A stretch of 18,590 nt of DNA from a virus. Lineage: Duplodnaviria; Heunggongvirae; Uroviricota; Caudoviricetes. The notes under the pieces were generated by a model. It was not told where the DNA came from. It saw only the letters and a list, made by a program, of their open reading frames with translations, and did not search any database. Below are positions 848 to 18,348 of this stretch, in pieces. The translations under genes and the position numbers were made by a program. How positions within the stretch are numbered: the first letter of the stretch is position 1; the number at the start of each line of letters is the position of its first letter. The stretch lies in the IMG/VR virus record IMGVR_UViG_2703718776_000018. One strand, written 5' to 3'.

Positions 848-3835
848 ATGAGCTTAAGCGATCAGGTGGTAATGGCCACCAGCATAGAAACGCTGATCGA
901 GCTGCTAAAGAACCTGCCCGATTATGGGCGGGTTTCGTATGTGGTGACAGCGAAGGGAGACGAGGTAAAAACAGCGTTTGATATCGTCGATGCCTCAGCT
1001 ATTTTGGTATCCAATACTCTGGATGGGAAAATTAATCCTGACTATCCCCAGGAACTTCAGCCGCGCGACCGGACCCGCGCATCCAGCCTTCTTCAGGTTA
1101 ACCAGATATCCAAAGATTTGCGGCCTGCTCAGCTTACCGATTCCGGATTATCCAGCCATGGCGCACCGATAATTGGTGAGGACAATGCAGTTGAGTCAGG
1201 TAATGGACGTACCATGGGGATCATTAAAGCCTATCAGGACGGTAATGCGGATCGGTATCGGGAGTACCTGATTGAACATGCGACCGAATTCGGCATACGT
1301 ACTGAAAAGGTTGAATCAATGACGGCTCCGGTACTGGTGCGCCGCCGGTTAACGAAGGTTGACCGCGTTCAGTTTGCCAAGGACTCAAATATTTCTGATC
1401 TTCAGGAAATGGCAGCCAGTGAAAAGGCTTTTGTTGATGCCGACAGCATAACACCGGCGATGATGGCGCTGTTTAATCCGTCAGAAAGCGGAGATCTGCT
1501 TAGCCGCAGTAATGACGCGTTTATTCGCGGATTTATGACGCAAGTTGGTGCCACACAGGCGGCTGGCCTTGTAACTGAAGATGGGCGACCAACACGGCAA
1601 CTTGTAGACCGTATACAAAACGCGATCTTTGCCAAGGCATATAAGGATGCGCGCCTGGTAAGGATGGTTGCAGAAGAACCTGATCCGGATATGCGTAATG
1701 TTCTGACGGCGCTTAATGCGGCAGCCAATGATTTTGTCCAGATGCAGGCTTTATCAGGAGAAGCGCACAAGCAGGCTGTGACAACTATTGTTGATGGCAT
1801 TGAGACAGCGGATAGCCTCGATAAAAAGGCGCTGGCGGCATTGAAAGATGCGGTAGACCTGGTAAGGCAATCGAAGGAGTCAGGCCAGCATATTACCGAT
1901 GTTATTGCTCAGGGGGATATGTTCAGCGAAATGGCCCCGGAAGTGAAAGCACTCGCGTTGTTCATCGTCGCGAATAACCGTAGCGCGAAGCGTATGGCCA
2001 CCGCCTTTAAGTTGATGGCTCAACGTATCAATGATGAGTTACAGCACCAGGGCCAGGCGCTGGGGGATATGTTTGGCGGCGGCGATGTGTCGTTACAGGA
2101 TATCCTTCGCCAGGTATCTCAGGAACTGGAAAACGAAGGTATGCAAGGGATATCCGGCGGTCTTTTCGAGTCAGCTTCCGGCGGTAGTTACAACGGTGTT
2201 GCTCCATATACCAGTTTGCTATTACATCGAGCATCCGGCATCAAAGACATTATTCATCTGATCAGGCTGCTTTCCCGTAAAGATCCCCAGGATGAACAGC
2301 TTGTACAAGTGCTTGCGCATTTTGTTCGAATGCCTGTTGCCGACGTGAAAAAATGGTGCCGATTATTCGGTATCAGCAATTCGTTACTTCGCGGCTTGTT
2401 AAATCACGCATCCTCCCTTGGGCGCGATGGCTTTGACGAGATAGCGCAGGCGATAAAAAACGGAGATATGCCACCAGCTATTGACTGGTTTTCCATTCGC
2501 CCAACCAGGGTGAAAGCATTCCTTAGCGCGGCGCATTCGGCATCACCATTGGCAGAAATGGTTCAGAGGTTGTCGCTCATATTCACAGACCATACCGCGT
2601 TGGGTGATCTGACTCTGGACGAGATGAAAGAAGCCTCCATTCAGTGGGCCGATCAACAAAATGAGGTTAACTCAGACTTCTTGCCAGCATTCAGGAAGGC
2701 CGTTAGTAAAGCGGATGATGCCCGTGGAATTCTGAAGGCATTTAAGGCATTGCAAAGTCGTGTTAATAAACATGTCGGTGATATCGATGGGGTAACGGCG
2801 GAAGGCCGGGATATCCTTAAAGAGCACGGCATAACGCCAGAGTTTATTGATGAGATCAGGACTGATATGCAGCGTGAGGTCGTATCGTCCCTGCAAATCG
2901 TAGCCAGAGCGTTGGCGGATGCTAATCCGAAGAGTGCGGCCATTGTTAACCGGGTTATTGGTGATATTGAAGCATCGGAGGGCATGGGGGCGCTGAAACT
3001 CTTCCTTTCGCGAGCGTTTAATCCTAACGGCAATATTCTCCCTGGCATTATTGGTGAGGCTAAAAAGTATGTCAGTGAAGAAGAACTTGAGCAGCTTGAC
3101 CAACTACTTAAGCGATTCTCATATAACCCGCAGACACGCTGGCAAATGAATCAGCGAAGTATGGGTTCGGTCCACGAGAAAGTGTTATCTGCCATGAACA
3201 GTGCGATCGCAAACTCATCCGTATCTGAAGAAAAAGCTCTTGAGTGGGCCGACTCTTTTATCACAGAAGAAGTGGAAGAAGCCCGCGCTGGACAGAATGG
3301 TGGGATAGACCTGCGCAAGGAACTTGCTGATATTTATCGCCTGACCGGCGGGAAAATATCGACCTTATCAAAGGTAGTTCACCACCAGGGAAGGGCATAT
3401 GCAAATCTAAATGGTGTTGTTGCTGTCAATTTGAACGATAAAAATGCAAGTGCACTGTGGCACGAGCTGGGTCATCATCTTGAGTACAGTAACCCTGGTT
3501 TGTTAGAGAAAGCCCGGTCATTCCTGAAGGCCAATGTTGAAGGGGATAAGCCATCTTTCGTTAATATCGGTGGGCGTGGCAAGCCTGAATGGTGCTTCAG
3601 ATCTCGATTGAGTAATATTTATATGGCGAAGGTATACCCGCCAGCCTCAGTAAGTAACACCGGGAAAATTCGGCAGAAATCACCGACTATTTCCAAAACG
3701 TCAGCAACGGAAGTATTCTCTATGGCTCTTCAGTTGTATCATGACAAAGAGGCCGCTGCCGCATCACTGATGAATGGTGACGGATTGCTGGAACTGTTAT
3801 TAGGTGTGGCAAAGGAGCTAAATAATGCAGATTAA
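848..3835 (+). CDS. Large 995-aa protein with an N-terminal ParB/Srx-like motif region and a C-terminal HExxH zincin-like motif; polyvalent-protein-like, possibly a virion-associated anti-defence protein (P1 Ddr-like?)
   Basis: Long uninterrupted ORF. Residues 63-73 read NPDYPQELQPR and residues ~116-127 read SGNGRTMGIIKA, with spacing reminiscent of the ParB N-terminal domain. HELGHH lies at residues 872-877 (nt 3461-3478). In-frame stop 4 codons upstream (833-835); the only SD-like sequence (TAAGG, 833-837) is about 10 nt from the ATG. Confidence 0.8.
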   Translation: MSLSDQVVMATSIETLIELLKNLPDYGRVSYVVTAKGDEVKTAFDIVDASAILVSNTLDGKINPDYPQELQPRDRTRASSLLQVNQISKDLRPAQLTDSGLSSHGAPIIGEDNAVESGNGRTMGIIKAYQDGNADRYREYLIEHATEFGIRTEKVESMTAPVLVRRRLTKVDRVQFAKDSNISDLQEMAASEKAFVDADSITPAMMALFNPSESGDLLSRSNDAFIRGFMTQVGATQAAGLVTEDGRPTRQLVDRIQNAIFAKAYKDARLVRMVAEEPDPDMRNVLTALNAAANDFVQMQALSGEAHKQAVTTIVDGIETADSLDKKALAALKDAVDLVRQSKESGQHITDVIAQGDMFSEMAPEVKALALFIVANNRSAKRMATAFKLMAQRINDELQHQGQALGDMFGGGDVSLQDILRQVSQELENEGMQGISGGLFESASGGSYNGVAPYTSLLLHRASGIKDIIHLIRLLSRKDPQDEQLVQVLAHFVRMPVADVKKWCRLFGISNSLLRGLLNHASSLGRDGFDEIAQAIKNGDMPPAIDWFSIRPTRVKAFLSAAHSASPLAEMVQRLSLIFTDHTALGDLTLDEMKEASIQWADQQNEVNSDFLPAFRKAVSKADDARGILKAFKALQSRVNKHVGDIDGVTAEGRDILKEHGITPEFIDEIRTDMQREVVSSLQIVARALADANPKSAAIVNRVIGDIEASEGMGALKLFLSRAFNPNGNILPGIIGEAKKYVSEEELEQLDQLLKRFSYNPQTRWQMNQRSMGSVHEKVLSAMNSAIANSSVSEEKALEWADSFITEEVEEARAGQNGGIDLRKELADIYRLTGGKISTLSKVVHHQGRAYANLNGVVAVNLNDKNASALWHELGHHLEYSNPGLLEKARSFLKANVEGDKPSFVNIGGRGKPEWCFRSRLSNIYMAKVYPPASVSNTGKIRQKSPTISKTSATEVFSMALQLYHDKEAAAASLMNGDGLLELLLGVAKELNNAD

Positions 3836-4145
3836 AATCGCAGCGCCATTAGGCGGAGATGCCATTATCGAATTTGATGATAATGAAGAAGTTTCCGGGC
3901 GTTTAAGCATTATCTCCGGTGACATTACCGAGGACATGATCGCTGAAGCCATAGCTGGGGCAAATCCCAATAGCTATATGGGATTCGTTAACACCCTTGA
4001 TGCTCCCGCAAGTGATGTTCTCCGAACGCTGCATCTTTACGCTGGCTGGTTTGTTGATTGGCCAGCAGTAGATGGTGGCGATGAGGATGATGATGACGAT
4101 GAAGAGGTTTTTAGTGATGAAACAGTAAACCAACTCTTGTATTGA
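3825..4145 (+). CDS. Small, very acidic 106-aa protein translationally coupled to the 995-aa gene
   Basis: Strong SD AAGGAG 7 nt upstream of the ATG at 3825. Overlaps the upstream stop by 11 nt. About 25 Asp/Glu against 4 basic residues, with a C-terminal run DGGDEDDDDDEEVFSDE. Confidence 0.7.
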   Translation: MQIKIAAPLGGDAIIEFDDNEEVSGRLSIISGDITEDMIAEAIAGANPNSYMGFVNTLDAPASDVLRTLHLYAGWFVDWPAVDGGDEDDDDDEEVFSDETVNQLLY

Positions 4146-4274
4146 CAGGAATTGGCATAGAATTGATTGTTCAAATTTCATCCATCACATAGACGACTTC
4201 ATGTTATTTGCCTGATAATTATGGCCTTAATAACCCATGTATATCTTTTGGGTTATATTCTTATCTTTAACAAG

Positions 4275-4320
4275 GTTATAAGAGCGACAATGATAAATTT
4301 ATCACTATCGCTCTTATAAC
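4275..4320. repeat. 46-bp near-perfect palindrome: 13-bp perfect arms (GTTATAAGAGCGA / TCGCTCTTATAAC) enclosing a 14-bp perfect inner palindrome TGATAAATTTATCA; possible bidirectional terminator or protein-binding site
   Basis: Read directly from the sequence; only 2 mismatched positions across 46 bp. Sits between the convergent 106-aa (+) and 95-aa (-) genes. Confidence 0.8.
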
Positions 4321-4348
4321 TCTTTGTTAGCTATAGCTTTAAACAAAT

Positions 4349-4636
4349 TTAGTTTTGAGGCAATGCAACAAAAGTCAGCTCTTGATCTTTGATTAATGCT
4401 TTTGTTTGTTTGGATGTAATTCCCACTTTAGTTTTTACATCATTGTGGAGCTTCTTATACGCTTTTATTTCATCTGCTGTATATCGGAAGCCATTTGCAC
4501 TGTTACTGGACAGTTGAAGTGCGATTACGTCATCACTGACACCCGCATCGCTTAGCTTAGCTATGCGGGTAATAGTGTGGCCTGCGCGAGTGTTTGGGGT
4601 GGATATTTTGTCTAAGAAATTGTTCAGTTTTTCCAT
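4349..4636 (-). CDS. Hypothetical 95-aa protein in an AT-rich cassette; possible HTH-like segment
   Basis: ATG at 4636 with SD GAGGT 8 nt upstream on the reverse strand. Bounded by the palindrome at 4275-4320 and the terminator at 4857-4884. Local GC is clearly lower than the flanks. The segment TITRIAKLSDAGVSDDVIALQL loosely resembles an Xre-type HTH. Confidence 0.65.
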   Translation of the reverse strand: MEKLNNFLDKISTPNTRAGHTITRIAKLSDAGVSDDVIALQLSSNSANGFRYTADEIKAYKKLHNDVKTKVGITSKQTKALIKDQELTFVALPQN

Positions 4637-4856
4637 TGTTTACAACCTCTTACTTGAGTTTATTGCCAGTAGAATTGCCACTATTCTTTTGCCTCAACGA
4701 ATCACAATGTACTGGAATAAGAAACTATGAGCAATACTTACGCTTTGCGAATACAGAAGATGAATAATCAACTTATTACTAAAATGTTAATAATATTATT
4801 CTGTTACATAGTGTTCGCTATAACAATCGGGAGTTGAATGCTAATTCAATAAATAA

Positions 4857-4884
4857 AGAACCCGCCAATTGGCGGGTTCTTTTT
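4857..4884 (-). terminator. Rho-independent terminator (10-bp stem AGAACCCGCC/GGCGGGTTCT, loop AATT) with U-rich tracts on both sides
   Basis: Perfect GC-rich hairpin directly after the stop of the 262-aa reverse-strand gene (stop 4883-4885); followed by TTTATTTATT on the reverse strand and TTTTT on the forward strand. Confidence 0.8.
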
Positions 4885-5671
4885 AATCACTTTCCACTTC
4901 TCCCGTGGTGTTTTCTTGCAGTTCTGTTAATGCAGCACGACATAGGTTCCGGGCATTGGCTATAGCCACACTTTTGACTTCATCCGTCATCGTGCAGGTA
5001 ATGTACTGATCTAGTTCTTCATCGCGGATGATGCTTTTGCCAATCAGAAACTGTATTTGCCAGAGCAGATCGGCATCCATAATCAGAATTTCTGCCGGGC
5101 CTTCAGGGCCAGCCGGGAAGGAAACATAAGACTGTTTGCCCAGGCCGACAACTCGACAACTTGCTTCAAGAATTGCGCGCTTGAGGTCTGACTTTATAAC
5201 GGAAACAGGTTGATTTTCACCAGTGATTACGCCGTTGACATGGAAAGGCATGTAGCTTGAAATTCGCTCTACTTTCCATACGCCAGCAAGCGATCCTTCA
5301 TGCAGCACAATGGGGGTAACCGCGAGTTTCATCTCACCATATAACTGCTGGCAGATAGCTGGATTGCTGAATACATCCAAAGGTTCACACTCAAACAGCG
5401 GCGCAATCTGCATGAGGTCCATCATGGTCATCCCTGGGGTACGAGCAGTAATGAATCTGCGCATACCAGTATCCATTGCGCTCCAGATTGCTACACCATG
5501 CTTTTTGCTCACTTCTTCAGTAAAGCCAAGGTGGCACATGATGGTTTTTTCGATAGCCAGATCAGAGATAGAAACCGTTTCGCCTGGCACTCCATCATTA
5601 TTGACGGTCACTTCGACACTCTGGCCATTACGTAGGCGGTATTGAATGGTTTTAGTATTTTGTGCTGTCAT
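4883..5671 (-). CDS. Hypothetical 262-aa protein downstream of ssb; function unknown
   Basis: Uninterrupted ORF with ATG at 5671, ending at a strong terminator. No motif recognisable by eye. Confidence 0.75.
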   Translation of the reverse strand: MTAQNTKTIQYRLRNGQSVEVTVNNDGVPGETVSISDLAIEKTIMCHLGFTEEVSKKHGVAIWSAMDTGMRRFITARTPGMTMMDLMQIAPLFECEPLDVFSNPAICQQLYGEMKLAVTPIVLHEGSLAGVWKVERISSYMPFHVNGVITGENQPVSVIKSDLKRAILEASCRVVGLGKQSYVSFPAGPEGPAEILIMDADLLWQIQFLIGKSIIRDEELDQYITCTMTDEVKSVAIANARNLCRAALTELQENTTGEVESD

Positions 5672-5868
5672 AGTCTTTTCTCTGCTTAAAAACTGATGTA
5701 TTGCGCCTTCAGGTTGGTTAGGAATGTTTTCCCACCAGCGAAAGCAATATCTCGGGGTGTTCTATTCGTTAAAAGCGCGTGCCATTGCCAACTTTGGCGT
5801 TTTTGAGCGAGTTCGTGCTTTTGTCGGCGTCTGGACCACCGCTTTTTTTTCAGTCGTTTTTTACACAT

Positions 5869-6357
5869 TCAAAACGGAATATCGTCGTCAAAGTCCATTG
5901 GAGGTTCGTTATTAGCGTTGCTCTGAGGTTTACCGCCACCACTGTATTGCTGGTGGTTTTGAGGTTGGTTTGATTGCCCCCAGCCATTTGTGGACTGTGA
6001 ATCGTCGCGACGAGCGCCGATCATTTGCATGGTGCCGCCCTGGCTGACGATAATTTCCGTCGTGTAACGTTCTACACCGGCGTCATCTGTCCACTTACGG
6101 GTTTTAAGTTTCCCTTCGATGTAGACCTGAGAACCTTTTCGTAAATACTCACTCGCAATTTCAGCAAGTTTTCCGAACAAAACGACTTTATGCCATTCTG
6201 TTTGCTCTTTCTGTTGGCCCGTTTGCTTGTCGCGCCATGATTCATTCGTTGCGATGCTGAGTCTTCCGACCGCGCCGCCATTTGGTATATACCTGATCTC
6301 CGGGTCTTGCCCCAGGGTGCCAATCAGGATGACTTTGTTTACACCGCGTTGTGCCAC
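5869..6357 (-). CDS. ssb: Single-stranded DNA-binding protein (162 aa), GTG start
   Basis: N-terminus [20 protein letters not shown].. is a typical SSB OB-fold start. Gly/Gln-rich linker and the canonical acidic tail [14 protein letters not shown] 7 nt before the GTG at 6357. Confidence 0.92.
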
Positions 6358-6376: not shown

Positions 6377-6393
6377 AAAATAATTAGAGCAAC
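6377..6393 (-). promoter_or_regulatory. Candidate C1-repressor-type operator (reverse strand reads GTTGCTCTAATTATTTT) over the presumed ssb promoter
   Basis: 14/17 match to the P1 C1 operator consensus ATTGCTCTAATAAATTT as I recall it, including a perfect TTGCTCTAAT core. Lies 20-36 nt upstream of the ssb GTG. Confidence 0.4.
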
Positions 6394-10172: not shown

Positions 10173-13100
10173 ATGAACAAGCTATCTATGGGGGTGTTTC
10201 GCTGTTCAAGTGTCAGCGAAATATTGAAATACATTAGGGCAATAACATCTCACCGAGCGCCGATTAAATACGGCGTGGAAAAGGTGGAAGGCAAAAGCTA
10301 TGACCGACTGCGCCGGGAGGCGAATCAGAAGGCGATAGATTTGCTTAATTCACTGGTGGACGGCGCGACACTGACAGATGAACAGCGCCAGATCCTGGCT
10401 GGGTACACCGGTGAAGGCGGCATTGGCGGGTCCGTCTCCGAATATTACACACCAAAGCCGATCGCTGAAGGTGTCTGGGAGATCATGAAGCTCTACGGCG
10501 CGGACGTAGGTAACACTCTGGAACCATCGGCGGGCACCGGCGTTTTTAATGAGACAAAACCGGTTGGTACGGTGATGACTGCGACTGAGATCAGCAGTGT
10601 TTCCGGTCGTATAAACCAGTTGTTACACCCGGAAGACAGCGTACAGATTTCCCCGTTCGAACAGCTGGCTATAAGCACACCTAACGATTCATTCGACCAT
10701 GTTGTGGGTAACGTTCCGTTCGGCGGTCGTGATAACACACGCAACATCGATAAGCCTTACGCAGAAGAAACGGACATGGGTTCTTACTTCATGCTCCGCA
10801 TGCTGGACAAGATAAAGCCAGGCGGATTCATGTGCGTGATTGTGCCGCCGTCCATTGTTTCAGGTTCAAACATGAAGCGGTTACGCCTGCGCCTATCACG
10901 GAAAGCAGAATTTCTTGGTGCCCACCGCTTGCCTACCGGTACTTTTGACGCAAACGGGACCAGTACGGTCGTAGATGTGGTGCTGATGCGCAAACATCCG
11001 GCAGAGATGGCTGAGAAAATCCCCCTGGTGGATGAAAGCACTCTTGAATCAGCAAATGTGCTTTGGCCAACGTTTATTTCTGGCAAGTGGTTTGAAAAGG
11101 ATGGCCGCCGGTTTGTTCATGGCACCCAAGAAAAGGGCTTCCGGGGGCGTATTGAGGTTCGTGCCGACGGTCAGATTGATAACCAGGCTCTTAAAGCGAA
11201 GCTGATTCATCGTTTCGAAAGCCGTATCGACTGGTCTTTGCTCGATATGGCTGAACCGTCACCGACCGCAGACGTTGTTGGTGAAGGGGAAATGCGCCTG
11301 ATTAATGGCGTATGGCAAAAATATGCTGGTGGTCGCTGGATTGAAGCTGATGCCGGGAAGGAACTTAAGATCGATGCTGCCAGTTATGGCGCGGATAGCT
11401 GGGAGGCTCTTCAGCGTAACCTGACTACAACAGAAGGCCGTCTCGGCATGACATTTACCCAGATGGCAAATGTCCGCGATAAGTACACCACATCAATCAG
11501 CGACGATATGGTGCAGCTGGTGGACTGGATTAACAGCCAGCCTGAAAAATACCGTGAACGCTTGTATCGCGGGGCGATGATTGGCCGGATGTTAATTGAA
11601 TATCAGGACATGAAGGCCGCCGGGCATAGTGCTGAACAAATCGAACAGCAGCGCCTTTCTCTGGTATCCCGTTTGCAGGCAGAGATTGACCGTTTTGGTA
11701 ACCCCGGTCGCGGTCCGATAGCGAAATTATCGGGGAGCGGTGCGCGCGCCTGGTTTGCTTTCCGTGGTGCAATTAAGCTGGATGGCACTATTTCTGACGA
11801 GCTGACAGGAAAACTGGTTACGCATGATTCCAGCGCCAGTTATGACTCCACCAGCTATCAGGACACCCTGCGTTATCTCTACAGTGATCTCACTCGCGAT
11901 CCAATCCAGCTCGATGATTTCCGCCTTGCGTTTACCGGCGAACTGCCAGCCAGTGATGATGAGTTGCTTAATTTATTGGCCAGCACCCCTGGCATTGCGG
12001 TTTCACCGTATGGCGGGATTGTTCCGTTCGCCCGCGCCACCAGCGGCGACATTAACGAGATAGTGGCTCCAAAACAGGAATTCCTCGCCACGCTCCCCGA
12101 CGGTCCAGTAAAGAACAACGTCCTTAATCAGCTGGCAGCGATCGAAGAGAAGCGCATCAAGACGCCAGCAGAGAATATCCGCTTTAAGCTCAATAGCCGT
12201 TGGTTCGACCGCTCCGTCATTCTGGAGTTTTTGCAGGAAAACGGCTATCCGGATCTGCGCTATGTGCAGTCAGTGCAGCTGGAAGGCGACGAAATGGTTT
12301 CTGACACCTATCACGGTGGTGATGGTCTGTTCGTCGGGCACCGATACGGTGTCGTCCAGCGCAAGGATAAAGAAACAGGCGAGATCCGCTACGAGTGGGA
12401 CCGTAAATCAGGTGAAAACGCGACCGGGTTCCCGGCACAACTGGAAAAGTATCTCAATGGTGCGCGTATCGGTGGCAAAGATAGCGCGACGGCGAACGGC
12501 TACCGCGAGCAGATGGCACTGCTTGAGGACCAGTTCAATAAGTGGATCAAGACGCACGATCGCTACGATGAGCTGGTTGCCAAATACAACGATGTGTTCA
12601 ATAGCAATATCCCGTATGAACACTCTGGCGATCCGCTTGGGTTGAAGGGATTAAGCGGTAAGCGCCAGCCATTTGATTACCAGAATAGCGAGGTGCGCCG
12701 ACTGTCCGAAGATGGGCGCGGCATCCTGGGCTTCGGCACCGGGCTGGGTAAAACCACGACCGCGCTGGCGCTTGAGGCGTTCAACTATGAGAACGGTCGC
12801 TCCACCCGTACTGCTTATGTAGTGCCTAAAGCAGTGCTGGAAAACTGGTATTACGAAGCAAAAGAGTTCCTGAGTGAAGAGGCATTCAGTAACTACCTGT
12901 TCGTCGGTCTTGATGTGCTGATGGATGGCGATCAGATTCGCCAGGTGCCGGTGCTCGATGAGAACGGTAAACCTGTTCTTGGTACTGATGGCACTCCAGT
13001 TATGCGCGATGCTCTTAAGCTGGCAGATGAAGCCACTATCACGGCGCGGATGAACGCGATCCCGCACTCAAATTACCGTGCAGTCGTGTTTACCAAAGAA

Positions 13101-16100
13101 CAATACGCCCGCATTCCGCTACGTGATGACACCGTAGATGAGCATGCACAAGACATGCTTTATGACTTCGTTGCCGCCGGGCGCGTAGCCAGCGCAATGG
13201 ATTCCGACTCCCATCGTAAAGAGGCGGCGCGTCGCTGGGTATTGTCGGAGTATTCAGATACCGGTACCGAAAAAGCAGAGAAGTATCCGTACTTTGAGGA
13301 TATGGGCTTCGATAGTGTGATCGCCGACGAAGGTCACAACTACCGCAATAGCTATAAAAATGGTCGCGAAGCGTCACAACTGGCCTATCTGCCCACCAGC
13401 GCGGTGGCGCAATCGGCGCGGGATATGGCAATCAAAAACGCGTACCTGATGAAAAAGAATGGCGGGCGCGGGCCGGTTCTCCTGACTGCAACGCCAGTCG
13501 TTAACACCCCGATCGATGCATACAACATGCTTTCTCATGTTCTGCCGAAGGAATACTGGCAGAAGATGGGGATCTACGGTCCTGATGACTTCGTTAAATT
13601 CTTCGGCAAGACCAGGCTGGAAACGGTACAGAAAATCAGCGGTGAAGTTGAAGAAAAAATGGCGCTGGTGGGCTTTGAAAACCTTGATGCGCTGCGCGGT
13701 ATATTCCATCGCTGGGTAACGCTTAAAACGGCGGAAGACGTTAAGGATACCGTGGAGATCCCGGAGCTGGACGAACACCAGCAGGATGCACCACTTACTG
13801 AAGAACAACTGGCGGCGTATGAAGAATTGCGTCAGCAGGCGGAAGCGGCGGCCAAAGCCAACAATGGCGTAACGACCTCGGTCAATGAAGACGGCGTGAT
13901 TGAGCACGAGAAAGCCCGTCCGATCTTCTCAATAATCAGGGATATGGACCGCGTATGTACTGACATGGACCTGTACTATCGCCGGATCACCTATCGTTTC
14001 CTGCCGGAGTACGCAGATGCGGTGCAGCAGCTGGCGGACAGTTTGCCTAAACAAGCCACCAGCGAAGACGACGACAGTGATGATTCAATCACGCAGCAAT
14101 CGCAATACTCCCTGATAGATAAGGGCGAGTTTATTCAGTTGCAGGTTCCGGAAGCGTTCGAGCAGGAAGTGAATAAGCGCCTGGCCAGGTTTGGCATTGA
14201 CGAACAGACCGTAACTCACCCCGTTACGCCCAAATACGCGAAGCTGATTGCCACGCTGAAGGAGTTTTTCCCGGAAGGTAAGCAAATCATCTTCACCGAT
14301 GAAAAAACGCAGCACCAGAAGCTCAAGCGCATTATCTGCAATGCTCTTAACCTTGAACCTTCAAAGGTGGGGATACTGAATGCTCAGACGGTTGCCGAGG
14401 CAGGTAAAACCGGTAAGAAACTGAAAGCGGTTAAACCGCCGAAAGAGCTACCGGATGAACCAACAGATGCACAGATAGCGAAATACAACGAGCAAATGGC
14501 TCTGTATGACGCCTATATCGCGCAGCAAAATGAAATGTCGCTGGGCGGGCTGGAAAAGATTGCTGCCGACTTCCAGGAGGGCCGGACTCCGATCATCATC
14601 TGCAACAAAAAGGCAGAGGTGGGTATCAACCTGCATCGAGGAACGACTGACATCCATCATCTGACGTTGCCATGGACACCAGCCAGTATCGCACAGCGTA
14701 ACGGTCGCGGTGCCCGAGTTGGTTCCAACCGTGCAAGCGTTCGCGTTCACTACTACTGCGGCAAGGGTTCTTTCGATGAATACCGACTGAAGACGCTGAA
14801 GCGTAAAGCAGGCTGGATCTCCGATATCCTCCGTTCAGATAAGTCAGAAATGGAGAACGCCGACGCCAACGATATGATCGAAATGCAGATGTATACCGCT
14901 AAGGATGATGGCGAACGTCTGGCAATGATGCAGGTTCAAATGGATAAGGCGAAAGCCGCGCAACGCGCTCGCCAGAAAGAACAGGCTACTATCGACCTTC
15001 AGAACTACATCAAGGCGCAGCACGCAGCTGGTGAGGATGTGGAGGTGCTTACCGCTGAATTAGAGCGAAGAAAAGCGGAACTCGAAAAGACCACCGCCGA
15101 CGTCGCCAAATTCAAACAGGCGGTAATGGCCAAAGCAGCTGATAACGCAGACTGGAAAGCCCGCTGGGGTAGCGTCCATCACACAGACCGTACGTTGTTA
15201 GCACAGTATCGCGCGTCGTTGAAAAGCGCCATTCAGCGCAAGGCTAATATCTCTCAAGCCATCTCCCGCTATGAGAAATTATTGAACCGTACTCAGAAGG
15301 CCGCGACGGATATCAAACGCCTTCGCCCGCTGGTGGAGGATGCAATAAATAAAGGCATTCTGGATGTTGATCCTGACCTGGTTAACCATGCGAGTGAGTT
15401 CCTTATTATCGGCGATCGCTCATGGCGTGTAGGCCAATACTACGATTGTGCCGGTGATATCGTTCGCATTAAGTCGCTGGACTTCGACAGCCAGCGCGCA
15501 GACGTGGAGATTATCTTTACCTTCAAAGGTACCAAATCGGGTAACTGGGATGTGAAGACGCTGGATAAACAGGTTGATGTAACTCCCGATGAAGATGCTG
15601 TTATGCAGAAAATCAGTGGTGGCGTCTCCATCGCCGGGATTAACGACATCATTTCCTGTGACGATTTCTACCGTTTCCAGCAGCGCGGCATGATCAAAAT
15701 CACTGACTCATACGGCGTTCAGACTACAGAGTCAGGCTATAGCATTGATTTTGTTGGTACCTATACGGACCCACTGAAGCATGCGGTTTACCCGGATCGC
15801 CGTGACGGCGCGCTGAAGTCGTCAATTGCAAAATGGGTGCTTGGTATGATGTCTGAAGGGAATAACCGCCAGGTCCGTTTGGCAGAAGTATTCCTGACTG
15901 AACTGTTTGGCTCCAATTATGGCGATGTAATCGCGTCATATGGAGATACGCTATCCCCTGAAGCAATTCAGGAGAAAATAGCGGATGCGATCGCCAGAAT
16001 GCCGGAGAAAACAAGCCAGGGGGCTACTCGTAACGGGGATTCTGAACTTGAGGTCACCAATGCCATTTTCGGTACCCATGAGTTCCGGGCGTCAGATTAT

Positions 16101-16940
16101 GAGATCACCACAGCACAGTTTGGCACCATTGGCATTTACAGCAATAAAGCCGAGATCAAGCAGGCAATGGACGCAGCAAGCGCGCGTATCGCAGCAGAAC
16201 GGGAAGCCAATCTGAATCATGCAGTCGCCGCACTGACTCAATCGTGGGTAACAGCAATCAGGGAGGCCGCCACCACAGGGAAAATCACACCTGCAATTGC
16301 GGATGTCGTAAACGACGGCTCTAAATTTATGGATGCCTATCAAATGGATGCGGTGAAGTTGCCATCAGCCTATGGTCAACTCAGCTATCGCATGACCTAC
16401 AACCTGGTATCAATGTTTTCCGACCTTGCCATCCTTGGGCTGGTGGATCTTAACGAGGTTACGCCGGAATTGCTCAGCATGCGCAAGAATCATGTGGAGA
16501 TATTGCAGAGAATTAACACGGTTCTTGCCGGGCGCACCGATGAAGAGAAACAGGCCGACGCTGATCGGATAAACCTGGCCCTTGGCAACATCACGGAGGA
16601 AGAAATTGCCGCCAGAAACGAGAAACAAGAAGAGTTATCATCAATACAGGGTGATGCCACCAGCATAGCTCAGTCTCTTGGTCTGAATTATCGCGTATCC
16701 ACCGCCGACCTGAAGATGATGTACGCACCAAAATTCGCCGCTGGCGAGGTATTTGGGCTTCAGGAAGCCTCAGGCATGAAAGGCGTTCTTTTCCGTGCGA
16801 AAGACGCAATCAAGGCGAAATTCGGCGCTCGCTGGCTGCCAGCGAAGGCGAAGAACAGCGATTTCCCGGGTAACTGGTGGATTATCGAGACAAAACACAA
16901 CGTGGCGGACGTTCTGGCCGTCATCCAACAATACGCATAA
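10173..16940 (+). CDS. darB: DarB-type antirestriction protein, 2255 aa: N6-adenine methyltransferase-like domain fused to an SF2 (SNF2/DExH-like) helicase, plus a long uncharacterised C-terminal region
   Basis: SD AAGGA 6 nt before the ATG. MTase motifs LEPSAGTGVF (residues 116-125) and GNVPFGG (179-185, nt 10707-10727). Helicase motifs GFGTGLGKTT (853-862, nt 12729-12758), DEGH (1052-1055, nt 13326-13337), LLTATPVVN, QRNGRGARVG. Length equals P1 DarB as I recall it. Confidence 0.9.
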   Translation: MNKLSMGVFRCSSVSEILKYIRAITSHRAPIKYGVEKVEGKSYDRLRREANQKAIDLLNSLVDGATLTDEQRQILAGYTGEGGIGGSVSEYYTPKPIAEGVWEIMKLYGADVGNTLEPSAGTGVFNETKPVGTVMTATEISSVSGRINQLLHPEDSVQISPFEQLAISTPNDSFDHVVGNVPFGGRDNTRNIDKPYAEETDMGSYFMLRMLDKIKPGGFMCVIVPPSIVSGSNMKRLRLRLSRKAEFLGAHRLPTGTFDANGTSTVVDVVLMRKHPAEMAEKIPLVDESTLESANVLWPTFISGKWFEKDGRRFVHGTQEKGFRGRIEVRADGQIDNQALKAKLIHRFESRIDWSLLDMAEPSPTADVVGEGEMRLINGVWQKYAGGRWIEADAGKELKIDAASYGADSWEALQRNLTTTEGRLGMTFTQMANVRDKYTTSISDDMVQLVDWINSQPEKYRERLYRGAMIGRMLIEYQDMKAAGHSAEQIEQQRLSLVSRLQAEIDRFGNPGRGPIAKLSGSGARAWFAFRGAIKLDGTISDELTGKLVTHDSSASYDSTSYQDTLRYLYSDLTRDPIQLDDFRLAFTGELPASDDELLNLLASTPGIAVSPYGGIVPFARATSGDINEIVAPKQEFLATLPDGPVKNNVLNQLAAIEEKRIKTPAENIRFKLNSRWFDRSVILEFLQENGYPDLRYVQSVQLEGDEMVSDTYHGGDGLFVGHRYGVVQRKDKETGEIRYEWDRKSGENATGFPAQLEKYLNGARIGGKDSATANGYREQMALLEDQFNKWIKTHDRYDELVAKYNDVFNSNIPYEHSGDPLGLKGLSGKRQPFDYQNSEVRRLSEDGRGILGFGTGLGKTTTALALEAFNYENGRSTRTAYVVPKAVLENWYYEAKEFLSEEAFSNYLFVGLDVLMDGDQIRQVPVLDENGKPVLGTDGTPVMRDALKLADEATITARMNAIPHSNYRAVVFTKEQYARIPLRDDTVDEHAQDMLYDFVAAGRVASAMDSDSHRKEAARRWVLSEYSDTGTEKAEKYPYFEDMGFDSVIADEGHNYRNSYKNGREASQLAYLPTSAVAQSARDMAIKNAYLMKKNGGRGPVLLTATPVVNTPIDAYNMLSHVLPKEYWQKMGIYGPDDFVKFFGKTRLETVQKISGEVEEKMALVGFENLDALRGIFHRWVTLKTAEDVKDTVEIPELDEHQQDAPLTEEQLAAYEELRQQAEAAAKANNGVTTSVNEDGVIEHEKARPIFSIIRDMDRVCTDMDLYYRRITYRFLPEYADAVQQLADSLPKQATSEDDDSDDSITQQSQYSLIDKGEFIQLQVPEAFEQEVNKRLARFGIDEQTVTHPVTPKYAKLIATLKEFFPEGKQIIFTDEKTQHQKLKRIICNALNLEPSKVGILNAQTVAEAGKTGKKLKAVKPPKELPDEPTDAQIAKYNEQMALYDAYIAQQNEMSLGGLEKIAADFQEGRTPIIICNKKAEVGINLHRGTTDIHHLTLPWTPASIAQRNGRGARVGSNRASVRVHYYCGKGSFDEYRLKTLKRKAGWISDILRSDKSEMENADANDMIEMQMYTAKDDGERLAMMQVQMDKAKAAQRARQKEQATIDLQNYIKAQHAAGEDVEVLTAELERRKAELEKTTADVAKFKQAVMAKAADNADWKARWGSVHHTDRTLLAQYRASLKSAIQRKANISQAISRYEKLLNRTQKAATDIKRLRPLVEDAINKGILDVDPDLVNHASEFLIIGDRSWRVGQYYDCAGDIVRIKSLDFDSQRADVEIIFTFKGTKSGNWDVKTLDKQVDVTPDEDAVMQKISGGVSIAGINDIISCDDFYRFQQRGMIKITDSYGVQTTESGYSIDFVGTYTDPLKHAVYPDRRDGALKSSIAKWVLGMMSEGNNRQVRLAEVFLTELFGSNYGDVIASYGDTLSPEAIQEKIADAIARMPEKTSQGATRNGDSELEVTNAIFGTHEFRASDYEITTAQFGTIGIYSNKAEIKQAMDAASARIAAEREANLNHAVAALTQSWVTAIREAATTGKITPAIADVVNDGSKFMDAYQMDAVKLPSAYGQLSYRMTYNLVSMFSDLAILGLVDLNEVTPELLSMRKNHVEILQRINTVLAGRTDEEKQADADRINLALGNITEEEIAARNEKQEELSSIQGDATSIAQSLGLNYRVSTADLKMMYAPKFAAGEVFGLQEASGMKGVLFRAKDAIKAKFGARWLPAKAKNSDFPGNWWIIETKHNVADVLAVIQQYA

Positions 16941-18331: not shown

Positions 18332-18348
18332 AAATATATTAGAGCACA
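18332..18348 (-). promoter_or_regulatory. Candidate C1-repressor-type operator (reverse strand reads TGTGCTCTAATATATTT) upstream of the 196-aa gene
   Basis: 14/17 match to the recalled consensus ATTGCTCTAATAAATTT with a perfect TGCTCTAATA core. Lies 31-47 nt upstream of the ATG at 18301. Confidence 0.4.

Follow-up and report, generated by a model that had tools for sequence, protein, structure and literature searches.

The isaA gene behind ssb in P1-like phage-plasmids: a corrected gene model, a predicted two-domain protein and a possible role in counter-defence

What is the 262-aa protein encoded next to ssb in an 18,590-nucleotide stretch of viral DNA (the whole stretch that was analyzed, hereafter the window), and what might it do for the element that carries it? 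The original prediction described a well-formed gene without a recognisable motif, ending in a strong terminator and lying between ssb and a variable AT-rich cassette, and proposed an accessory function (exclusion, anti-defence, or replication helper). As shown below, the gene belongs to the P1 lineage. Phage P1 is a workhorse of Escherichia coli genetics, and P1/D6-like phage-plasmids commonly carry resistance and virulence genes in clinical Enterobacteriaceae; to our knowledge, isaA has had no assigned function since the 2004-era P1 reference annotation. The genes of the window are as follows.

848–3835, plus strand: ddrB
3825–4145, plus strand: hxr
4150–4880: AT-rich DNA, the cassette between hxr and isaA
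4883–5671, minus strand: isaA, 262 aa, ATG start and TAA stop
5869–6357, minus strand: ssb (Pfam SSB, E = 7e-40), the first gene of the operon
beyond ssb in window order, plus strand: lyz
between lyz and darB, minus strand: pro/prt
10173–16940, plus strand: darB, the last gene in the listed window order

Searches with megablast and tblastn showed that the ORF shares 94% amino acid identity with phage P1 IsaA over all 262 residues. The product is 97.7% identical to its counterparts in phages 813R1, Ro157c2YLVW, and SJ46, and 100% identical copies were found in IMG/VR contig 646311924_000007 (97,897 bp) and E. coli plasmid NZ_AP027178.1. It matches phrog_2326 (E = 4.4e-147; residues 4–262 on profile positions 2–261 of 264), a family annotated as "unknown function." By these sequence comparisons, the ORF is the ortholog of P1 isaA ("IS1-associated gene A") and is already catalogued, and the window comes from a P1-like phage-plasmid. 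P1 isaA (P1_gp017, YP_006486.1) likewise follows ssb and precedes hxr-ddrB. The window, P1, and 58 IMG/VR loci all have these genes in the order lyz, ssb, isaA, hxr, ddrB, and the Ssb of the window is 96–100% identical to the P1-type Ssb of related loci. The two loci differ in that P1 IsaA carries a two-residue FH insertion and that P1 has IS1 and isaB after isaA, whereas the window lacks IS1 and has another AT-rich cassette. The GC content was 0.30–0.33 in the 3′ flank of isaA versus 0.47–0.49 within the gene, in agreement with the AT-rich cassette originally described alongside it. This variable slot between isaA and hxr contains a 95-aa ORF (4349–4636, minus strand) that had no Pfam, PHROG, or PADLOC match and is common to few relatives only (L004, L006, L015, L050, and gp14 of Ro157).

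The P1 reference record gives IsaA as 320 aa, starting from a GTG within the ssb–isaA spacer (L001, P1 NC_005856, 4001–4963). In the window, this longer frame meets a TAG stop (spacer 5672–5868), and it is broken at two different places in many of the 24 spacer haplotypes; the pN/pS of the N-terminal extension frame is at least 0.87. In phages with an extra gene at this point, isaA begins at a GTG three codons further in, and the distant homologs all begin at the equivalent residue (the MTAQ/VENTK position). These observations show that the 262-aa form is the real product. The 320-aa model was rejected on the stops and the pN/pS of its extension, and the P1 annotation appears to be over-extended by 56 codons.

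Across 42 distinct alleles (60 related loci and the window), isaA showed a pN/pS of 0.13 and no internal stops, which, together with the intact 262-codon ATG-to-TAA frame, bears out the description of a well-formed gene. By its substitution pattern, isaA is clearly functional and under purifying selection. Within the P1 group, pN/pS was 0.09–0.17 in each of the three structural segments of IsaA, and positive selection in the variable N-terminal domain was not seen. A 111-aa antisense ORF (5310–5645, plus strand) lies inside isaA; since the isaA frame is under strong constraint at the level of codons, this ORF is probably spurious.

The transcriptional setting of isaA was examined through the sites that flank it.

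4855–4882, minus strand: intrinsic-terminator-like hairpin, with a 12-pair stem (seven G-C pairs), a 4-nt loop, and a T-rich tail
5686–5868, minus strand: 60-codon ORF in the 197-nt ssb–isaA spacer, starting at a TGAATG on the ssb stop
6377–6393, minus strand: putative C1 operator GTTGCTCTAATTATTTT, equivalent to Ossb/Op21, 20 nt upstream of the ssb start

The operator site has three mismatches to the C1 operator consensus and is co-linear with the annotated P1 Ossb, from which it differs at two positions. Three C1-operator-like sites were found in the window, against 0.04 expected. The other two (10227–10243 and 18332–18348, both on the minus strand) also have three mismatches each to the consensus, and the former lies at the 5′ end of darB, near the annotated hypothetical C1 operator for the pro genes of P7. 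Scanning of the minus strand revealed no promoter- or terminator-like site between ssb and isaA, and the only minus-strand terminator in the scan was the hairpin directly after isaA, as originally predicted. From the operator, the uninterrupted interval, and the terminator, we infer that ssb, the spacer, and isaA form one C1-repressed transcription unit with isaA as the last cistron. With the C1 operator on the ssb operon, isaA would be silent in the lysogen and expressed early upon infection or induction.

In related alleles (L031, L014, L037, and others), a hairpin occupies this position as well, and the two arms of its stem carry matching changes (GAACCCGCC/GGCGGGTTC versus AATCCCGCC/GGCGGGATT); in P1, the isaA stop is followed by an unrelated hairpin. 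The matching changes and the different P1 hairpin argue for selection on termination directly after the gene. In the commonest alternative haplotype, the hairpin arrangement is replaced by a further gene that overlaps the isaA stop. This 364-aa ORF, seen in L007 (5782–6876, plus strand) and about 20 similar loci, lies on the same strand as isaA with an 8-nt overlap. It contains a P-loop-like TPHGIGETS motif and had no Pfam or PADLOC match; from this arrangement, it may be functionally coupled to isaA. In GenBank records MH422554 and MH445380, a "terminase large subunit" feature lies under the match region and may correspond to the 364-aa ORF.

The ssb–isaA distance of 197 nt agrees with the roughly 200 bp of noncoding sequence originally reported, and the term "noncoding" needs qualification, as the spacer contains the 60-codon ORF. 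This ORF ends 15 nt before the isaA ATG and is open in 23 of the 24 haplotypes; a 5-nt insertion that some of these have before the ATG of the ORF itself leaves it open. Its predicted product is very basic (pI 11.8; MCKKRLKKKRWSRRRQ...). Pfam gave nothing above its curated cutoff for this product, PHROG and PADLOC gave no match, and the pN/pS of 0.64 indicates weak constraint. The ORF might be a small gene with translational coupling, or a mere leader. Inside the ORF, window-type haplotypes have a run of eight at 5843–5850 (T8 on the plus strand, A8 on the coding strand), and most relatives have AAAGAAAA at these window positions. Structured RNAs and known RNA families were also considered for the spacer and rejected: the fold of the spacer RNA was not unusual (z = −1.25), and no Rfam family matched anywhere in the window.

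Structure prediction and remote homology searching had been proposed as checks on this protein. The AlphaFold2 model built on a 27-sequence alignment reached a pLDDT of 87.6 and a pTM of 0.83, replacing an earlier seven-sequence run with a pLDDT of 60.6. In this model, an N-terminal alpha/beta domain (residues ~1–115), whose core at 37–93 is arranged alpha-beta-beta-beta-alpha, is followed by a second alpha/beta domain (~116–228) with most of the conserved residues and by a helix at 230–261, after which many homologs have an acidic or proline-rich tail. Only L128, W132, G176, and D221 are invariant in the family; all four are present in the window protein, as are the family motifs NGxLxGxWxVER and RAPELDxY. 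The predicted topologies of the two domains are similar, and an internal duplication was not detectable by sequence (hhalign E = 0.41).

One of the domains has a predicted nuclease-like or dsRBD-like fold without catalytic residues. No conserved catalytic constellation was found in IsaA, and the conserved D...(D/E)xK residues that mark the core strands of the PD-(D/E)xK superfamily were not found either. A dsRBD is defined by an alpha-beta-beta-beta-alpha fold with a basic RNA-binding surface; the N-terminal core of IsaA is predicted with this topology, and the protein is acidic throughout. No membrane or signal features, DNA-binding motif, or enzymatic motif were recognised. Scans of IsaA against Pfam, NCBIfam, and PADLOC gave no match (for Pfam, also none for the 27 family members; for PADLOC-DB, no family at E ≤ 1), phmmer and profile searches of PDB sequences gave nothing below E = 0.7, and Foldseek searches of PDB and BFVD with the model gave no significant match except a P1 IsaA fragment. 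Two single-domain PDB entries of about 110 aa, 1r7l (a Bacillus cereus prophage protein and structural-genomics target, 16% identity to IsaA) and 4pup (9% identity), have no sequence-level relation to IsaA; neither has an assigned function, so the match transfers no mechanism to IsaA, and nothing informative was found in the literature on 1r7l and its fold family. The absence of a recognisable motif held up, and the searches found no homolog of IsaA among housekeeping proteins of known function.

The IsaA family is rare. An exhaustive HMMER profile search of 1.84 billion representatives yielded 41 proteins (E ≤ 1e-3), and the sole additions from a second such search were "hypothetical proteins" from Xenorhabdus, Yersinia, and Raoultella; all 27 aligned members match phrog_2326 alone among the PHROGs. 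In PLSDB, IsaA was found on 474 plasmids, almost all about 90–100 kb and non-mobilizable, of which 336 encode it at ≥90% identity and 138 at below 60%. The P1 portal protein was found on 674 plasmids (about 494 close and 180 distant), indicating that roughly 70% of P1-like plasmids carry IsaA. The family was found solely in P1-like phage-plasmids. Among the published variable regions of these elements is the isaA-IS1-isaB segment (PMC9603915). P7 lacks isaA, and the nmpC porin gene fills the slot; the cargo between isaA and hxr varies as well, being isaB/IS1 in P1, a wHTH-HipA-like kinase gene in L048 (HipA_C, E = 3e-15), or absent. Judged by its homologs and their distribution, the IsaA family is an old gene confined to P1-like phage-plasmids and not a fast-moving cassette.

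The gene context was surveyed at 80 IMG/VR isaA loci, with a locus scan that used a profile from a shallower alignment. The P1-type order runs from leftward lyz through rightward ssb, the spacer, a Tad2-like gene (23 of 58 loci), rightward isaA, and the variable cassette where present to leftward hxr and ddrB. The D6-type order, found in 22 of 22 loci, is cre, a c8-like gene, orf116, dUTPase, a Tad2-like gene, and isaA, followed by a convergent phd/doc module. Phage D6 orf113 and its D6-like homologs are 48% identical to the window IsaA over the full length. The D6-like isaA is operon-terminal, as in the window, and differs in standing next to phd/doc at the end of the cre-c8-orf116-dUTPase-Tad2 operon instead of after ssb.

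In all eight distant lineages with readable flanks (15–30% IsaA identity), leftward c1 is followed by rightward cre, a c8 homolog of ~110 aa, and then isaA. The ~110-aa gene and P1 C8 share PHROG 1968 (phrog_1968). Between the c8 homolog and isaA, zero to three genes (a wHTH protein, dUTPase) are inserted; a 4-nt overlap with the isaA start is frequent, and c8 and isaA themselves overlap in several of these lineages. L096 has exactly cre-c8-isaA-ref, and ref also lies shortly downstream in L084. Across L084–L096, the block of leftward c1 and rightward cre, c8-like gene, and isaA (with or without ref) is kept at 15–25% IsaA identity, and the c8–isaA junction repeatedly takes inserts (a wHTH protein, dUTPase, Tad2). 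P1 has cre-c8-ref-mat without isaA at that site. P1 Mat, a 250-aa protein encoded near cre, was considered as an IsaA paralog and rejected (hhalign probability 0.2%). From this synteny, we infer that isaA ancestrally stood at the end of the cre-c8 operon and moved behind ssb in the P1 group.

In Ro157c2YLVW and D6, isaA is directly preceded by a gene that matched Pfam PF11195, "Thoeris anti-defense 2-like," with an E value of ~1e-22 that clears the curated cutoff. Tad2 (DUF2829) proteins were experimentally shown to sequester the Thoeris signal gcADPR (bioRxiv 10.1101/2023.05.01.538930), and Tad2 is present in 93% of D6-type and 56% of P1-type phage-plasmids (2025 preprint). In our survey, a Tad2-like gene stood upstream of isaA in 45 of the 80 IMG/VR loci (e.g., L002, 5373–6050; L003, 2594–3034). 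Viewed from the Tad2 side, isaA was immediately downstream in 57 of 57 P1/D6-type loci, with a gap of 6–9 nt in 56 and a 1.4-kb insertion in the other; the four Tad2 loci without isaA were the most divergent Tad2 matches. Tad2 resembles isaA in being a small, early, nonessential phage gene, and IsaA has no sequence or fold similarity to it. The Tad2-like gene has a variable N-terminal extension (146 to about 225 aa in total), and lineages that share 48% identity in IsaA share ~85% in the Tad2 C-domain. This disparity suggests recent exchange of Tad2, landing at the isaA start each time. The window and P1 both lack the Tad2-like gene, and the window isaA ATG stands at the position of the Tad2 start codon, with the same ribosome-binding region. 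The arrangement could mean that one insertion site has been reused by homologous recombination, not that the two genes share a function.

In a genome-wide CRISPRi analysis of P1, isaA was nonessential, with an EOP of 0.86 ± 0.47 (PMC10695390); the gene is dispensable for lytic growth on the laboratory host. Unlike the Dar/Ddr anti-restriction proteins of P1, which are packaged in the virion, IsaA is unmentioned in the main text and supplement of the P1 virion proteome study (PMC9024508), which is an absence of mention only. Our literature search did not find a paper assigning a function to IsaA. The accessory function originally proposed gains support from the CRISPRi data, the variable region, the nmpC swap in P7, and the Tad2-like neighbour; its exclusion variant is unlikely, since the operon lies under a C1 operator.

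Our leading explanation, put forward tentatively, is that IsaA is an early, non-enzymatic, protein-binding accessory factor, probably for counter-defence or host interference. It draws on the expression timing, on dispensability on the laboratory host combined with strong purifying selection, on the acidity and the lack of catalytic residues, on the position in a cargo hotspot beside the dar/ddr anti-restriction operon, and on the invariant coupling to the Tad2-like gene. Under this explanation, isaA would be off in the lysogen and its product made early upon infection or induction; IsaA would act stoichiometrically through protein binding, not as an enzyme or a nucleic-acid binder, and its target would most likely be a component of host immunity or host interference met in the first minutes after DNA entry. 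More than half of the carriers could co-translate it with a Tad2-like signal sponge encoded 6–9 nt upstream, and in the window and P1 it would act without this partner. A more specific version, which we consider doubtful, would make IsaA the founder of a new anti-defence family of P1-like phage-plasmids, an acidic binder that neutralises an immune effector or sensor and forms a two-gene module with Tad2 where the latter is present; at the protein level, IsaA might then block the TIR/Thoeris-type pathway that Tad2 counters, or a parallel one.

Several observations pull against counter-defence. Neither sequence nor fold relates IsaA to a known defence or anti-defence family, no diversifying selection was seen in any domain in the P1 group, and the reuse of a single insertion site could account for the Tad2 adjacency. 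Furthermore, the restriction of the family to P1-like phage-plasmids and the cre-c8(-ref) synteny, kept down to 15–25% identity, fit a vertically inherited, lifestyle-linked backbone gene better than a roaming anti-defence gene. IsaA could also be a helper in DNA transactions, modulating recombination, replication, or cyclisation of the genome on its entry or induction by binding a protein such as Ssb, RecA, Ref, or Cre, a proposal we regard as possible but on the unlikely side. In the leading regions of conjugative plasmids, psiB/psiA come after ssb, and an isaA gene co-transcribed with ssb in the P1 group, as the operon layout suggests, would be analogous in logic. The cre-c8 operon of the distant relatives, where the RecA-dependent nuclease gene ref adjoins isaA (L096) or lies near it (L084), the dUTPase gene preceding isaA in D6-like elements and L092, and the predicted nuclease-like or dsRBD-like domain are all consistent with a helper of this kind. 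However, isaA is nonessential, P7 and roughly a third of P1-like plasmids do without it, the acidity of the protein makes direct nucleic-acid binding unlikely, no Pfam match to PsiA/PsiB or any other family was obtained, and cre-c8-ref is intact in P1 without isaA at that site.

The same synteny would also accommodate a partnership of IsaA with C8 in deciding between lysis and lysogeny or on plasmid establishment: in eight of eight distant lineages, the c8 homolog precedes isaA, with cre upstream of both and c1 adjacent, the two genes overlap by 4 nt in several, and the P1 annotation of c8 reads "establishment of lysogeny, putative." Yet in the P1 group isaA is separated from c8 and driven by a different, C1-repressed promoter, elsewhere the two frequently have other genes between them, IsaA has no DNA-binding motif, and it is often lost in nature, all of which leaves this partnership distinctly improbable. 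The cargo hotspot itself, which elsewhere holds a porin gene, an HTH-HipA-like kinase gene, and other morons, might instead point to a protein for defence or superinfection exclusion, encoded by the prophage to the benefit of its host, and the D6-like isaA lies within the cre operon, which may be expressed in the lysogen. We consider this very unlikely: the window operon has a C1 operator and should be off in the lysogen, and the protein has no PADLOC match, membrane or signal features, or enzymatic motif.

This analysis newly contributes a corrected start for IsaA, a confident model of its two domains, the order cre-c8-isaA as the ancestral synteny, and the invariant adjacency of Tad2 and isaA. 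With these four elements, a vague "accessory" label becomes a set of testable hypotheses. If counter-defence proves true, IsaA would represent a new family and help to explain the host range of phage-plasmids; if not, the gene would point to an unrecognised helper of the cre/c8/ref early functions.
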